From a virus (Duplodnaviria; Caudoviricetes), in IMG/VR virus record IMGVR_UViG_3300013121_000018, positions 43,582 to 107,581 of that record: DNA of 64,000 nucleotides, one strand, 5' to 3'. Shown here piece by piece: positions 7,307 to 31,282 of this stretch; within the stretch, counting starts at the first letter, position 1, and the number at the start of each line of letters is the position of its first letter. The notes under the pieces are model-generated. The model ran no database searches. It saw only the letters and a program-made list of their open reading frames with translations, and was not told the origin of the DNA. The position numbers were made by a program, and so were the translations under genes.

Positions 7307-8128
7307 ATGTTCGACAACAATCAAGAACAACTCCAAAAAGGCTCTGGCCAACAACAACTTTTCACCGGTCTGTATCCATTAAGGATTGTAGGAATTAACC
7401 CTACTGTAGAACAGCTTACCAATATTATTGGTGAAGGTGCTTCTAAATTTAAGGTTGACTACAGTGTAGGACAGTATGGAAAACCTGTTACGTTTTGGTT
7501 TTCATCACCTGACAATAAAGTGAAACCTTTTAGCAAGACAATATTTCTTAAAGAAGAAACTATTGTCGTTCAAGATTCTGGAAAAACAATGCTGTTGAAT
7601 GACAGTACAGGACAATACGGAACTGTTCAGTCAGCCTGGGCAGTATCTCCAGAGGATGTTCCACTATGGTTCTCTAAAGACGGTATTCGTCCTGCAAATA
7701 AGGGAGAATATGAATATTATGACCTACTGGTTAAATTTCTTCGTTTCCGTGACAAGGAAGGTGGAAAGACTTATGTAGAATTTCTTTCTGAAGAGAAAGT
7801 AGATTTTGCATCAGTTATTAATGGTGATGACAGTGCGTTGCATAATCTAGCCGATTATTTTATGGATAATGCAAGTACTTGTGTAATTTTGCTGACAGTT
7901 CGTAGTGGTGAAAAGAATTACCAAGATTGTGAACTTGGTAATTGTGTTTTTGGTCAGAATTCTGTTACCGATAAAGTAATTGAAAGGGCACAAAAACTCA
8001 ATTCAAATGCTGATTATCCTATCAGCAAAAACGAATTCAGCTTTGAATTTGCAGAGTATACCGGAGCATCTGCTCCACCCACACCTAAAAAGGTAGACGC
8101 TCCTGCAAAGAAGCAAAGTTGGATTTAA
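7307..8128 (+). CDS. Probable single-stranded DNA-binding protein
   Basis: Located between the Sak4-like ATPase and primase; FTG..P.RIVGINPT N-terminus as in crAss-like SSBs; flexible Pro/Ala tail. Confidence 0.55.
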   Translation: MFDNNQEQLQKGSGQQQLFTGLYPLRIVGINPTVEQLTNIIGEGASKFKVDYSVGQYGKPVTFWFSSPDNKVKPFSKTIFLKEETIVVQDSGKTMLLNDSTGQYGTVQSAWAVSPEDVPLWFSKDGIRPANKGEYEYYDLLVKFLRFRDKEGGKTYVEFLSEEKVDFASVINGDDSALHNLADYFMDNASTCVILLTVRSGEKNYQDCELGNCVFGQNSVTDKVIERAQKLNSNADYPISKNEFSFEFAEYTGASAPPTPKKVDAPAKKQSWI

Positions 8129-8141
8129 AAAATCCATAAAT

Positions 8142-9137
8142 GTGTTTAAAAATAAAACACAACTTCTAACAAAAGTAACGCCGGACATGATTGCTAGTAA
8201 TAGTGATTATGTCTGGCTTATTTTTTTTGGTGAATTGCCGTCTTATGGTAAAAGATTTTATTCTCCTTTCAGGTCTGATAGAAAGGCTGGTTGTAGATGG
8301 TCGTACAATAATAATCAATGGTGGTTGGTAGATAATGCTGGTCACAATGGTAAACTTGCTTGGAGCATCTATGATTTTGTATCATGGTTGTATCCAACAT
8401 ATACGGCTAAAGAAGTGTATCATTTAATTGCCAGTCGATTGGTTGAAACTGTTCCAAATATTCAAACCATTAGAAGACCTAATGTAGCATCTGTTAAAGA
8501 TAACAATATCATTATTAAGTTTGAATATACAGATTGGACAGAAGATGATTATTTTTCTAGAATGTTTGACATTGACCTAAATTATTTGAATCAACAACCA
8601 TATTATAAAGTTGTTAATTATTGGGCAAATTCTAGAAAAGACAACACTTTAAGAAAAAATCCTTTTCATTCACCAAAAAGTGTAGAAACGATTGCTTATT
8701 ATTTTGAAGACACAGACCATACTAAGCTGTATTTCCCTGCAAAAAATGATTTTAAATGGTATAGCAATTGTAATGCTGATGATATATTTGGAGAACACAG
8801 ATTGAAGGAATATGACAACTCTCATATTGTAATTACTAAGTCTGCAAAAGACGAAATGATACTAAACTATCATTGTAATCTTCAAACATTAGCAGTACAA
8901 TCAGAGGCAATTACTTCCAATAAAAAATTAAATGATTTATGCAATCAATTTTCTCAAAAAATTATTTACTTCGACAACGATGACCCAGGAAGAAGAAATT
9001 CAAAGACTTTGGGAGAAAGCGTCGGAGCGTTATGCATCTTTAATGGAGACACAGAAGGAAAAGACGCTGCCGAGTTTTATGCACTCCAAAACAACAAGGA
9101 GAAATTCAAAGAAGGAATTAACAACAAATTCAAATGA
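8142..9137 (+). CDS. DNA primase (TOPRIM)
   Basis: SPFRSD..AGC N-terminus, ITKSAKD, QSE, FDNDDPG, KDAAE. Confidence 0.85.
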   Translation: MFKNKTQLLTKVTPDMIASNSDYVWLIFFGELPSYGKRFYSPFRSDRKAGCRWSYNNNQWWLVDNAGHNGKLAWSIYDFVSWLYPTYTAKEVYHLIASRLVETVPNIQTIRRPNVASVKDNNIIIKFEYTDWTEDDYFSRMFDIDLNYLNQQPYYKVVNYWANSRKDNTLRKNPFHSPKSVETIAYYFEDTDHTKLYFPAKNDFKWYSNCNADDIFGEHRLKEYDNSHIVITKSAKDEMILNYHCNLQTLAVQSEAITSNKKLNDLCNQFSQKIIYFDNDDPGRRNSKTLGESVGALCIFNGDTEGKDAAEFYALQNNKEKFKEGINNKFK

Positions 9138-20961: not shown

Positions 20962-21378
20962 ATGAAGAAAAAAGAATTAAAAACACTAGAAGAAATTGAA
21001 GAATACTTTGCTAAACAGCCTAAGATATATATTAAAAAAGAATATTCTAATTATAAAGACTTAGCTAAAGATATGGCTTGTGGTAAAGTTCCTACTTTTT
21101 ATAAGAGGGGGAGACAACAAGCATATCCTTCTTCATATAGAAGTCTTACGGATATAATCAGAACATGTAAAACATATTTTAACGTGTCTGCTAAAGAAGT
21201 GTTATTGTATTTAGATACCTTAAATAACACTAGAAATAGATGCCATGTCATACGAAAGTATGTTTTTCATCATAATGAATATCCTTGGGGATTTCAAAAA
21301 ACTCCAGGTCAGCTTCAAGTAAAAACCGAAATAGGTGATATGCGCTATGGAGATTTAATTAAACTTTGCCAAGAATGA
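20962..21378 (+). CDS. Hypothetical protein, paralog family A
   Basis: PTFY...QQ....RSLTDII..CKTYF...C..IRKYVF. Confidence 0.7.
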   Translation: MKKKELKTLEEIEEYFAKQPKIYIKKEYSNYKDLAKDMACGKVPTFYKRGRQQAYPSSYRSLTDIIRTCKTYFNVSAKEVLLYLDTLNNTRNRCHVIRKYVFHHNEYPWGFQKTPGQLQVKTEIGDMRYGDLIKLCQE

Positions 21379-21893
21379 AAGTAATTTTTACGTATGGAAT
21401 TTCTGGTTCAGGTAAAAGTACTTGGACTAGAAATTTCATACAATCAAATCCCAATTATATCCGAATAAATCGAGATGCAATTAGGGAAACTTTAATACCA
21501 GACCATATAAACAACTGGTATAATAGACCAGACCGAGAACAACTTGAAAAGTTAGTATCTTCAATTGAGTACGATTTGACTGATATAGCTTACATACATG
21601 ATAAAGATATTGTTATTGACTCTACAAATCTTGATAAAAAGCGTTTAGAGGCATTTTTAGTCTATTTAAAGAAACATCATGATGAAGTAGATATATCTAT
21701 CAAGATTTTTGAATGTCGTCTTAGAATAGCTCAAAATAGGGTATATCGAAGAGATTATGCTGGAGAAACCTTTGATGATGATGAATACTTTGATTTAGCA
21801 AACAAACCTCAAGTAGCATATATTGAAAAACAGTACAATAAATTTCAAGGTAATTTACCTTGGATAAAATCTTTACCTTATAATATAATATAA
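21375..21893 (+). CDS. AAA_33 / polynucleotide kinase-like
   Basis: GISGSGKSTW, INRDAIR, VIDSTNL, R..RRD. Confidence 0.88.
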   Translation: MKVIFTYGISGSGKSTWTRNFIQSNPNYIRINRDAIRETLIPDHINNWYNRPDREQLEKLVSSIEYDLTDIAYIHDKDIVIDSTNLDKKRLEAFLVYLKKHHDEVDISIKIFECRLRIAQNRVYRRDYAGETFDDDEYFDLANKPQVAYIEKQYNKFQGNLPWIKSLPYNII

Positions 21894-23227: not shown

Positions 23228-23534
23228 TTTATTAATTGCTATAAGTGATATTGCACAAACTCGTAATCCATATGAATATGGACTTCCGACACATGATGAA
23301 GAATTATTAGCATTAATGTGTGAACAAATAAAACAATTTGTTAGTAAAAAATGTGCTGAACAAAGACAATTGTGTGTCGATAATGCTAAAATAAATGTTG
23401 AAGCTAAATTTAAAGGAGAAGTAAGAAATACACAAGCGAATTCTTATTTTTATGATTTTAAAGAACAAGGTGGGAAACGTGAAATTACTGTATACATAGA
23501 ATCAATCATTAATGCACCAGAACCAATACTATGA
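23220..23534 (+). CDS. Hypothetical protein
   Basis: Coupled ORF. Confidence 0.65.
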   Translation: MDDLLIAISDIAQTRNPYEYGLPTHDEELLALMCEQIKQFVSKKCAEQRQLCVDNAKINVEAKFKGEVRNTQANSYFYDFKEQGGKREITVYIESIINAPEPIL

Positions 23535-23722
23535 AAAGTGATAAATACGAGAAGGAAACTCTAGTAATTTACAGAAAAGATGGAAGTATTCTTAAAGAAA
23601 TTGATGTAACCAATTGGTCTTATATTCGTAAACTGGAAAAAAGAAATTCTTGTATGACAAAATTATTATCAGCAGATCATTGGGACATCATCCAAATAAG
23701 AAAAAAAGATGACGAAGACTGA
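23531..23722 (+). CDS. Hypothetical protein
   Basis: Coupled ORF. Confidence 0.55.
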   Translation: MKSDKYEKETLVIYRKDGSILKEIDVTNWSYIRKLEKRNSCMTKLLSADHWDIIQIRKKDDED

Positions 23723-23879
23723 AGCAATCTATCAGGCATTTTGTGAGATTGTGCCGTTTACAAAAAAAGAAGTAACGGTGAGAGTTGAGGATGATACTGA
23801 TGAATATGGTAATTTTGTTAGAGTGTATTTTGAAAAATCTGTTTCATCAAAAGTAAGATATGACAATAACATACGATGA
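23709..23879 (+). CDS. Hypothetical protein (56 aa, below track cutoff)
   Basis: MTKTEAIYQAFCEIVPF...; fills the gap and overlaps both neighbours. Confidence 0.55.
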   Translation: MTKTEAIYQAFCEIVPFTKKEVTVRVEDDTDEYGNFVRVYFEKSVSSKVRYDNNIR

Positions 23880-24198
23880 AAGAATAATCGGAAATAAACT
23901 TATTGCTAACTTCATGGGTGGTAAGTATAAGATTTCTCAGGAGTATTTACCTATGGATTCTATGTGGCTTCCTACTCATGGTATATGTAAACATGATACT
24001 ATAGAATTGGGAAAAGGTAAGATTTTTCAATATCATGCATCTTGGGATTGGTTAATACCAGTTGCAGCTAAAATTGCTATTATTTCTGAAGAACCTGAAG
24101 AATTAGATTCTTTAAAATCTGCAATATTATTTAATGATATTAACACTGCTTGGAAAGATTGTGTAAATTGGCTTAAAGAGCATACAATAAAACTATGA
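23860..24198 (+). CDS. Hypothetical protein
   Basis: NKLIA.FMG..YH.SWDWLIPV pattern common in Bacteroidota phages. Confidence 0.7.
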   Translation: MTITYDERIIGNKLIANFMGGKYKISQEYLPMDSMWLPTHGICKHDTIELGKGKIFQYHASWDWLIPVAAKIAIISEEPEELDSLKSAILFNDINTAWKDCVNWLKEHTIKL

Positions 24199-24371
24199 AC
24201 AACAGGAGAGTAATCAACACTGTACAGTAGGTTTACTACTGAGGTGTACAAACATACTTTGAAACACTATGTTTGACTTGTTGTTTATCATTGGAATTAC
24301 CGATGTTGTTGTTGGTTTTGTCGATTATTTAGCAATAATTGGCATTACTGATATAGAAGTCGGTTAATTCC
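24195..24371 (+). ncRNA. Candidate structured RNA/leader (three-way junction plus long G-U-rich hairpin)
   Basis: Stems ATGAACAACAGG/CTTGTTGTTTAT, CAGTAG/CTACTG, CAAACATA/TATGTTTG and GGAATTACCGA/TCGGTTAATTCC. Confidence 0.55.
24269..24367 (+). CDS. 32-aa peptide made of two 16-aa repeats
   Basis: As read: MFDLLFIIGITDVVVG-FVDYLAIIGITDIEVG*. The IIGITD repeat is kept with synonymous changes (ATCATTGGAATTACCGAT vs ATAATTGGCATTACTGAT). Confidence 0.6.
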   Translation: MFDLLFIIGITDVVVGFVDYLAIIGITDIEVG

Positions 24372-24372
24372 T

Positions 24373-24403
24373 GAAGCGTCTGAAATATGACGCTTCTTTT
24401 TTT
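24373..24403 (+). terminator. Intrinsic terminator
   Basis: GAAGCGTC-8nt-GACGCTTC followed by T7. Confidence 0.85.
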
Positions 24404-24411
24404 AAAATTAT

Positions 24412-24924
24412 ATGACAAAAATAAAAATAGGATTAGACCTTGACGGCTGTATTGTCGATTTTACTGGTGGATTCTTTAAATGGTTTGATGAACCATTGCC
24501 TAAAATTACACAGTGGGAAGTTGATTTTATAAATGAGAATTTTGAACATATTGCTAACGATAAAGATTTTTGGCTTAGTTTAGATCCACTTATAGATCCA
24601 AAAGAACTGGAAGGAATTCCAGTTTACTGTTACATTACTGCTAGACCTGTAGATCCACATATAAGCTTTAAATGGCTTGAAATGCATGGATTTCCACTTG
24701 CACCAGTATTCGGTGTAGGTTCTGATGGTGCAAAGCATGACACTAAAACAGAAATTATTAGAGAACTTGGTATCAATTACTTTGTTGATGATAAGCGTCA
24801 ACACTTTGATGAAATTAATTCATGTACAGATTGTACATGTTTTCTAATGAATACACCTTGGACTGAATGGGAAACTGTTCAGCCTAAAATACACACGTTT
24901 CAAGAATTAAAAGAAGTACTTTAA
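24412..24924 (+). CDS. HAD-family 5'(3')-deoxyribonucleotidase
   Basis: DLDGCIVD, ITAR, K, FVDD motifs. Confidence 0.85.
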   Translation: MTKIKIGLDLDGCIVDFTGGFFKWFDEPLPKITQWEVDFINENFEHIANDKDFWLSLDPLIDPKELEGIPVYCYITARPVDPHISFKWLEMHGFPLAPVFGVGSDGAKHDTKTEIIRELGINYFVDDKRQHFDEINSCTDCTCFLMNTPWTEWETVQPKIHTFQELKEVL

Positions 24925-25250
24925 TGGAACTTGGTGATAGATATAATGAAGGAAAACCGATGATGTCTTTAGTACCGCCAATTGCAATGACAGAAGTTGC
25001 TAAGGTGTTAACATATGGTGCTCAGAAATATGCAAAGAACAATTGGTTGAAGGGAAGACCTCACATGGAGTTTATTGACAGCATGGAAAGACATGTTGCT
25101 GAATGGAAGAAATGTATTGATATTGACCCTGAAAGTGGGTTACATCATATTTCACATGCAGCATGTAATCTTATGATGCTGTTAGAATTAATAGCCTTAC
25201 GTCCAGATTTGGATGATAGGCCATTAGAGTTTTACAATGAAAAAAAGTAA
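24924..25250 (+). CDS. dATP/dGTP diphosphohydrolase (DUF5664-like)
   Basis: GK..MSLVP, VLTYGA.KY..NNW.KG, RH, DPESGL.H..HAACN. Confidence 0.88.
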   Translation: MELGDRYNEGKPMMSLVPPIAMTEVAKVLTYGAQKYAKNNWLKGRPHMEFIDSMERHVAEWKKCIDIDPESGLHHISHAACNLMMLLELIALRPDLDDRPLEFYNEKK

Positions 25251-27195: not shown

Positions 27196-27227
27196 GGGTT
27201 ATGGCGCTTCGCTGTAACCCCCTTTTT
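27196..27227 (+). terminator. Intrinsic terminator ending the left arm
   Basis: GGGTTATGGCG-CTT-CGCTGTAACCC followed by CCTTTTT. Confidence 0.8.
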
Positions 27228-27240
27228 GACATAGCGGAAT

Positions 27241-27274
27241 AAAAAAAGGGAAGTACTCCTAAGAATACTCCCCC
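27241..27274 (-). terminator. Intrinsic terminator ending the right arm
   Basis: Minus strand GGGGAGTATTC-TTAG-GAGTACTTCCC followed by T7. Confidence 0.8.
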
Positions 27275-27294
27275 TATGAAAAGATTGATGACTA

Positions 27295-31200: not shown

Positions 31201-31282
31201 GCCATTTTAAGACGTTTTGCAGACAGAAAAGGTCTTGAGCAGTACTTACTACTACTCAAGACCAAGAATGTCTTAAATCGGC
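31201..31282 (+). repeat. Long imperfect hairpin element, copy 2
   Basis: GCCATTTTAAGACG...TGTCTTAAATCGGC outer stem and GGTCTTGAG/CTCAAGACC inner stem; outer arms resemble those at 653-733. Confidence 0.65.

Follow-up and report, generated by a model that had tools for sequence, protein, structure and literature searches.

A putative new micro-protein family encoded with an intrinsic terminator on a structured RNA of an uncultured phage

Introduction

Annotation of uncultured phages covers almost none of their small proteins and structured RNAs. In an uncultured phage of ~108 kb, a short segment between a 112-codon gene of unassigned family (23860-24198) and a HAD-like gene raises the question of whether it carries a small gene, a regulatory RNA or both. 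This segment is part of the window analyzed in this study, a stretch of 64,000 nucleotides that corresponds to bases 43582-107581 of the 107,581-bp IMG/VR virus record IMGVR_UViG_3300013121_000018. The record is estimated to be 97% complete, and the G+C content is ~31%. Positions given below are those of the window.

An initial annotation, made without database searches, had proposed three explanations for the segment: an attenuator or riboswitch gating a downstream nucleotide-metabolism operon, a precursor resembling ribosomally synthesized and post-translationally modified peptides (RiPPs), or a small inhibitory or toxic peptide kept silent by RNA structure. Our results from this study point to a new small peptide family and to a portable peptide-terminator module, which has the layout of known micro-open reading frame (micro-ORF)/terminator systems and lies on a structured mRNA. 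This element was not described in the literature searched.

Evidence for the peptide gene

The 99-nt frame that begins with the ATG at 24269 is listed by no gene track. It is a real coding gene according to three independent lines of evidence, which are the divergence within the gene, the divergence between phages and the conservation at strain level. Within the gene, 10 of the 16 residues are identical between the two halves of the predicted peptide, and 6 of these 10 are encoded by different codons. The halves differ at 19 of 48 bases, with 4, 3, and 12 differences at codon positions 1, 2, and 3, respectively (hypergeometric P = 5.8e-4). The third positions match at 4 of 16 sites, which is the chance level, and the first and second positions match at 25 of 32 sites, compared with a mean of 11.8 in a codon-shuffle null (P ~5e-6). 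The proportion of synonymous differences (pS) between the halves was 0.85 and that of nonsynonymous differences (pN) was 0.26 (P = 0.002). This codon-position pattern confirmed the two 16-residue repeats, kept through synonymous changes, that had been noted initially, and the two halves represent an old internal duplication maintained at the amino-acid level.

A similar pattern was found between phages. In the comparison with a homolog from a Logan contig (L039, see below), 16 of 26 alignable residues were identical, of which 9 were encoded by different codons (pS 0.78, pN 0.31, P = 2.6e-4).

For the comparison at strain level, strains with 97–99% identity to the phage are present on Logan contigs, which come from metagenomes of freshwater, bioreactors and sludge. 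One strain had 10 single-nucleotide polymorphisms (SNPs) in 23865-24194 and 13 in 24412-24930, which together are 849 flanking bases, and 16 of these 23 SNPs were synonymous. The same strain had no SNP in 24195-24370 (Poisson P = 0.0085). Only two positions of its element were changed, both unpaired: 24372, which belongs to the linker joining the hairpin to the terminator, and 24404, where the U-run was lengthened. Given that the interval free of SNPs also covers the 74 nt preceding the ATG, these 74 nt are constrained as much as the ORF, and the comparison indicates purifying selection on the whole 176 nt.

The predicted peptide is very hydrophobic, with a mean hydropathy of ~1.7 by hand count, and contains 15 Ile, Val or Leu residues, 5 acidic residues and no basic residue. 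AlphaFold2 in single-sequence mode predicted one helix with a predicted local distance difference test (pLDDT) score of 87, which carries little weight for a 32-mer. A Phmmer search with the peptide against 1.84 billion protein representatives returned no match, nor did profile searches of PHROGs, NCBIfam, and PDB. The ESM Atlas contains the peptide letter for letter, and its best look-alike there scored 0.77, which is below a meaningful score. Among the contigs searched, no called gene had the peptide as its product.

Homologs and gene neighborhoods of the module

Homologs of the peptide had been suggested as a check of the initial annotation, and two were found. The homolog at L039:126-212 has 28 codons and two IIGITD motifs that are 16 residues apart. 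It is upstream of a HAD-like gene copy with 72% identity to that of the window, and its score with the single-sequence covariance model was 19.8 bits. The homolog at L042:69-149(-) has 26 codons and one IIGITD motif, and was found by scanning GTDB genomes with a pattern derived from the C-terminus. It retains IIGITDIxVG with 5 synonymous changes. L042 is a contig of 1014 bp in a metagenome-assembled genome of Candidatus Saccharibacteria. As it has a NinG-like recombination gene next to the phage module, it is probably a misbinned piece of a phage, or derived from a phage of the community of that bin.

All three members have an open frame that terminates with the same motif. IIGITDI.V is invariant at -10 to -2 from the stop codon, the C-terminal motif is IIGITDIxV(G/S) across the three members and the N-terminal half is variable. 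These sequence comparisons define a small new peptide family with the motif IIGITDIxVG.

The three copies share the order of peptide, intrinsic terminator and a next ATG ~1–13 nt past the U-run, and they are found in three different gene neighborhoods. In the window the order is g23220, g23531, g23709, g23860, the module and the HAD-like gene. In L039 the homolog of g23220 is followed by the module, a small ORF, the homolog of g23709 and the HAD-like gene, and in L042 the module follows the NinG-like gene and a small ORF. Contigs with HAD-like genes of 67–75% identity (L024-L032) have another ORF directly upstream of this gene and no module there. Because the neighbors differ in L039 and L042 and these relatives of the HAD-like gene are without the module directly upstream, the module is conserved but mobile and is not a leader restricted to nucleotide-metabolism genes.

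In three of the contigs with relatives of the HAD-like gene (L026, L027, and L029), an intact 122-codon DUF7020 gene precedes it. At the corresponding place in L024 (2638-3001), only a 43-codon ORF and a 232-nt gap were called, which suggests a frameshifted DUF7020 copy or an assembly error.

Additional searches identified no further copy. A blastn search of 50,697 phage records with 23860-24930 gave no match, and a search of IMG/VR for related loci with both flanking proteins and a 664-residue protein found no relatives. The element was not found next to relatives of the upstream gene 23860 (best identity 44%; contigs L002-L004) or of gene 23220 (L040 and L041). Scans of IMG/VR with patterns of the peptide motif were empty, as was another motif scan of GTDB genomes apart from the one that found L042. 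Motif scans of JGI metagenomes gave three chance matches, which were one outer-membrane-type ORF and two low-complexity stretches. Finally, the single-sequence covariance model had no match elsewhere in the genome of the phage or in 10 related phage records.

RNA structure of the module

The segment 24190-24411 folds to -76.6 kcal/mol, compared with -42.4 ± 4.1 kcal/mol for dinucleotide shuffles (z -8.3); without the terminator, the element still had a z of -6.5. The opposite strand folds to only -49.9 kcal/mol, which is 27 kcal/mol worse, and 10 of the 73 pairs in the full fold are G-U. Thus, the structure belongs to the + strand RNA and not to the DNA. A cruciform or an origin at the DNA level was rejected on the same two grounds. 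Windows of 180 nt sampled across the whole stretch (n = 710) had a mean of -31.2 ± 7.5 kcal/mol and a lowest value of -55.9 kcal/mol. The exact element folds to -62.6 kcal/mol, and no other 180-nt window in the 64 kb is as stable.

Most of the ORF is enclosed in a long hairpin (Table 1), which corresponds to the G-U-rich hairpin of the initial annotation. The contribution of silent sites was assessed with synonymous recodings (n = 400 for fold energy, which followed the codon usage of the phage, and n = 150 for start opening). Recoded ORFs fold to -53.9 ± 3.4 kcal/mol, compared with -76.2 kcal/mol for the native one (z -6.5). For the hairpin only, the values were -15.3 ± 2.9 and -33.6 kcal/mol, respectively. 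In the comparison across the three members, each native mRNA was also more stable than its recodings, with z values of -6.1 in the window, -2.9 in L039 and -3.3 in L042. Given that the native fold is more stable than synonymous recodings, the silent sites build the structure, and in every member these energy models indicate selection on the wobble positions for RNA structure.

Base-pair covariation, which had also been proposed as a check, was not found across the three members, and the registers of their hairpins differ. The members share a stable fold that covers the peptide gene, together with the terminator, and not a specific aptamer-like architecture.

The three-way junction that was thought to bury the ATG at 24269 was recovered as a multi-branch domain in both the minimum free energy (MFE) and the centroid structures (Table 1). 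Its helix P1 pairs 24195-24206, which includes the stop codon of the upstream gene and the first codons of an upstream ORF (uORF), with 24277-24288, which are codons 3–7 of the peptide gene. P2 is at 24217-24247, and P3 at 24249-24275 pairs the ATG. Since P3 by itself is worth only -4.2 kcal/mol, the effective lock of the start is predicted to be P1 rather than P3. Opening the start region costs 16.1 kcal/mol, compared with 8.7 ± 2.2 kcal/mol in synonymous recodings, and none of the 150 recodings reached the native value. According to these calculations, the window phage stands out in how deeply its start codon is buried, and L039 and L042 do not.

The uORF, which the initial annotation had described as coupled to the upstream gene by ATGA, is present, and P1 takes its 5' strand from the first 12 nt of this uORF. 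The ATGA overlap alone is weak evidence because such overlaps are common between genes of the phage. The start contexts of 97 long ORFs were used to build a weight matrix, with which the start of the uORF ranked at the 12th percentile among real starts and at the 86th among all ATGs. The uORF was not kept in L039 and L042, both of which were examined, and its translation is therefore uncertain.

The contexts of the 97 long-ORF starts are A-rich upstream, without a Shine-Dalgarno signal, and have A-rich second codons, with T at +4 strongly avoided. This pattern is that described for Bacteroidota and fits a host of that phylum, and the A-rich contexts suggest a host without Shine-Dalgarno initiation. 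The context of the ATG of the peptide gene is poor, and this poor context and the lock by P1 together suggest that translation of the peptide in the window phage is low or conditional.

The terminator

The strong terminator predicted to lie 5 nt past the stop codon was also found (Table 1). The loop UGAAAUAU and the trailing U-run, AAAA, Y, and UAUA are identical in the window (24373-24411) and in L039:211-262. The letters of the two stems are nearly all different, yet both stems pair. As in the window, a similar succession of U-run, A-run, UAUA and ATG trails the terminator in L039 and L042. In all three members there is no room for a promoter between the terminator and the next ATG. Termination does not require a conserved loop such as UGAAAUAU.

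Table 1. Positions of the features of the module and of its downstream boundary in the window.
Feature	Position	Strand	Description
uORF	24195-24230	+	11 codons; ATG at 24195, TAG at 24228-24230; ATGA overlap with the TGA of gene 23860-24198
5' multi-branch RNA domain	24195-24288	+	MFE and centroid; -28.9 kcal/mol, z -3.5; no SNP in strains of 97% identity
Putative micro-protein gene	24269-24367	+	32 codons and TAA; two 16-residue halves, each with IIGITD
Long hairpin	24293-24371	+	covers codons 9–32 and the stop codon; 34 pairs, 7 of them G-U; -32.4 kcal/mol, z -7.0
Intrinsic terminator	24373-24403	+	stem 24373-24396 beginning 5 nt past TAA, 8 bp, G+C-rich, loop UGAAAUAU, then U7; z -5.2, 98% of the ensemble
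Spacer AAAAUUAU	24404-24411	+	8 nt of A/U between the U-run and the next ATG at 24412
HAD-like gene	24412-24924	+	DxDG motif; downstream boundary, outside the module

Rfam had been named as a further check of novelty, and no known family was matched. With permissive filters, cmscan of 23500-25000 gave best scores of 17–21 bits, compared with thresholds of 40–90 bits, and E-values of at least 1. No tRNA or tmRNA was found in the region of the element. Hammerhead and other small ribozymes, 6S-like RNA and the glutamine-II/Downstream-peptide motif were rejected because of the lack of an Rfam match. A repeat RNA like those of type III antitoxins was also rejected: the identity of the repeats here is only 60%, and the gene that follows encodes a HAD-like protein and not a nuclease of the ToxN type.

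Proposed function and alternative explanations

The best explanation, to which we assign a probability of about 0.5, is a conserved micro-protein gene on a short and stable transcript that ends at the terminator, with translation gated by RNA structure and a peptide that acts in trans. The module would be transcribed either as a short, very stable RNA that stops at the terminator or as part of the upstream message, of which it would form the 3' end. The short transcript would give abundant mRNA for the peptide, and the downstream genes would be reached only by read-through. In the window phage, P1 would couple synthesis of the peptide to upstream translation: ribosomes that finish the upstream gene or translate the uORF would melt P1, and the peptide would be made mainly then. 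Acting in trans, the peptide would most likely be a small membrane-associated protein. If so, it would be a candidate host-takeover or membrane effector. Among the earlier proposals, that of a small peptide kept silent by RNA structure comes nearest to this evidence. The coding sequence is real and conserved and the start is exceptionally buried in the window phage, but this burial is not significant in L039 and L042.

Several observations weigh against a gated, trans-acting micro-protein. Its membrane role is drawn only from composition and a helix prediction for a single sequence, and the peptide is without the basic residues usual for small membrane proteins. The register of the ORF hairpin differs in each homolog, without covariation at the level of pairs. 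Moreover, the burial of the start gave P = 0.26 for L039 and P = 0.45 for L042, and the ATG at 24269 is at the 1st percentile of the 97 long-ORF starts, with T at +4. The family has three members only, two of which are on 1-kb contigs. Finally, a conserved C-terminus beside a stop codon and a terminator would fit a cis-acting regulatory peptide equally well.

The layout of the module has a measured precedent in the microcin C operon, in which mccA is followed by an intrinsic terminator and mccB (Zukher et al., 2014; PMC4231749). In the mccA system, transcription reaches the downstream genes only by read-through, the short transcript is abundant and stable, and the ribosome occupancy of the micro-ORF interacts with termination; MccA has 7 residues and is the substrate of the adjacent MccB (PMC4231749). 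Similar to mccA-mccB, the module in the window, L039 and L042 has a short peptide ORF, an immediate intrinsic terminator and downstream genes in the same orientation with no room for a promoter. Different from MccA, however, the peptide here has 26–32 residues, an unrelated sequence and no linked modifying enzyme, and it is known from its sequence alone. A fixed enzyme-substrate pair of the mccA type is unlikely, because the downstream gene differs between homologs.

Gating by RNA structure also has precedents. MS2 has a long-range lock between coat and replicase, and in T4 the starts of e, soc, and 49 are hidden in hairpins on early transcripts. Similar to these genes, the start region of the peptide gene is predicted to pair with a distant upstream segment, and its translation would need ribosomes that melt the helix or a transcript without the 5' strand. 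Different from MS2 and T4, the gating here comes from energy calculations only and is exceptional in the window phage but not in the two homologs. The hok/mok/sok system combines a small hydrophobic peptide, a compact and translationally inert mRNA and translation that depends on an upstream frame. As in type I toxin mRNAs, the peptide here is small and hydrophobic, the mRNA is folded and translation would depend on an upstream frame; the predicted occlusion of the start is strong in the window and not significant in L039 or L042. Different from hok/mok/sok, the uORF and the peptide ORF are separate, without overlap, the peptide has acidic but no basic residues and there is no sequence similarity. 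No antisense RNA of this type was seen, and no promoter-terminator pair for one stands out. The structured RNAs RNAIII/hld, SR1/SR1P, and SgrS/SgrT are dual-function RNAs that encode a small peptide. The module resembles them in being a structured RNA of ~200 nt that ends in a terminator and encodes a peptide of ~30 residues, but no base-pairing target or promoter of its own was identified and its structure is not conserved at the level of base pairs.

The main rival, which we consider unlikely, is a cis-acting leader peptide of the arrest type. Its last ten residues would act in the ribosome tunnel, the ribosome held at the stop codon would cover the 5' arm of the terminator and read-through would follow. 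TnaC and SpeFL are leader peptides that sense tryptophan or ornithine and arrest at the stop codon, and they act on Rho-dependent termination. Similar to them, the module has conserved residues just before the stop codon, directly upstream of a termination signal, and its conservation is concentrated there, with an N-terminal half that varies. Different from them, the terminator is intrinsic, the motif is unrelated and no effector, ligand or signal is evident. The terminator was tested by folding the RNA with 30 nt masked, as if by a ribosome, in steps of two codons along the ORF, and it was lost in silico only with a ribosome on the last codons or the stop codon. This geometry of masking fits the window and L039, in which the stem begins 5 nt and ~2–5 nt past the stop codon, respectively. 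It does not fit L042, in which the stem begins ~12 nt past the stop codon, outside the footprint of a terminating ribosome. A next gene that starts directly past the terminator in all three members, with no room for a promoter, would also suit the arrest peptide. However, terminator-like hairpins without room for a promoter are not peculiar to the module, since a similar hairpin with a U-run at 8180-8217 also abuts or lies inside the next reading frame. Moreover, the motif is duplicated internally in two of three members, which is unnecessary for a peptide acting in the tunnel, and the mechanism depends on coupling of transcription and translation in the host.

The same folding test bears on the attenuator or riboswitch proposed initially for the nucleotide-metabolism genes. 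The 32-codon ORF with its many Ile, Val and Leu residues is followed by a terminator, as expected of a classical leader peptide, and there is a weak match to Phe_leader (18.6 bits, compared with a gathering score of 55). However, no antiterminator was found, and the pair probabilities of the terminator were at least 0.68 with a ribosome anywhere before the last two codons. Stalling at Ile, Val or Leu codons thus cannot relieve termination, because the terminator persists unless a ribosome occupies one of the last two codons or the stop codon. All Rfam families scored below their thresholds, and the peptide sequence itself is under selection. In addition, the homologs front other genes, the relatives of the HAD-like gene with 67–75% identity are without the element directly upstream, and the downstream genes of the window are not those of amino-acid biosynthesis. 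As for their identity, the dATP/dGTP diphosphohydrolase (PF18909, 4e-31), the ATP-grasp ligase and the dUTPase named initially were all confirmed. The name nucleotidase for the gene at 24412 is an inference only: its protein carries a DxDG motif of the HAD type and matches only PHROGs of unknown function. The modeling thus largely refutes the classical attenuator or riboswitch, which we regard as the least probable of the explanations weighed here. In a looser variant, which is possible, ribosomes that translate as far as the stop codon would disturb the terminator. A more novel and rather doubtful reading is a new type of switch for phage transcription that is portable and translation-checked: IIGITDIxVG would stall the ribosome at the stop codon, immediately before an intrinsic terminator, and read-through would be tied to translation of the micro-ORF, itself unlocked only by translation of the upstream gene. 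If this were true, the module would be a portable gate between gene blocks of phages in hosts without Shine-Dalgarno-led initiation. More generally, a module that gates read-through or translation would be an added regulatory device for phages of such hosts.

Improbable in our judgment is a non-coding structured RNA, such as a small RNA, a stabilizer of a 3' untranslated region or an anti-defense decoy, in which the 32-codon frame is incidental to a G+U-rich hairpin. The very strong strand-specific fold with its 10 G-U pairs, the absence of SNPs in near-identical strains and the buried ATG with its poor start context would all be consistent with such an RNA, and U-rich sequence encodes hydrophobic residues in any frame. 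The divergence, however, has a period of three within the ORF and between homologs, with synonymous sites saturated, and the open frame ends at the same motif in three sequences. Moreover, base pairs are not kept between homologs and no Rfam family was matched. Very improbable is a RiPP-like precursor modified by the ATP-grasp ligase or the amidoligase of the phage, with the terminator setting a high ratio of precursor to enzyme as in microcin C. The order of peptide gene, terminator and downstream enzymes resembles that of mccA, terminator and mccB, the peptide has Thr and Asp/Glu residues, and an ATP-grasp ligase, an amidoligase and amidotransferases are among the enzymes of the phage. However, the ATP-grasp gene is 1.5 kb and five genes away from the module, and its protein matched models of the purK/RimK type weakly, far below the cut-offs. 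In 19 phage contigs from IMG/VR with 41–50% identical ATP-grasp proteins, no such peptide was found within 6 kb. The neighbors in L039 and L042 are unrelated small ORFs, a NinG-like gene and a HAD-like gene, with no ATP-grasp gene on these short contigs. In addition, the peptide shows no leader or core features of known graspetide precursors. This initial proposal thus found little support.

Genome setting and other features of the window

The module is part of a block of + strand genes that spans 1-27189; giant ORFs are encoded on the - strand. Among the small genes upstream of the module, 21366-21893 encodes a small P-loop kinase similar to AAA_33 and zeta toxin (PF13671, 9e-15; PF06414, 8e-6). 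Where the + and - gene blocks meet, convergent intrinsic terminators were found at 27196-27220 (+) and 27275-27246 (-), and this site (27196-27275) coincides with the maximum of the cumulative GC skew.

A second very stable element, at 8129-8240 (+), has at 8180-8217 the hairpin mentioned above, of 17 bp and with a U-run behind it (-37.1 kcal/mol, z -7.3). The element begins where gene 7307-8128 ends, and the ATG at 8187 of a long frame (8142/8187-9137) lies inside it. It could be either a terminator that abuts the next gene or a hairpin that hides the start of that gene. Kinship of the module with two other hairpins, at 653-733 and 31201-31282, was rejected because there is no sequence similarity. 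These two hairpins have the common arms ATTTTAAGAC...GTCTTAAA, and both are among the most stable 180-nt windows.

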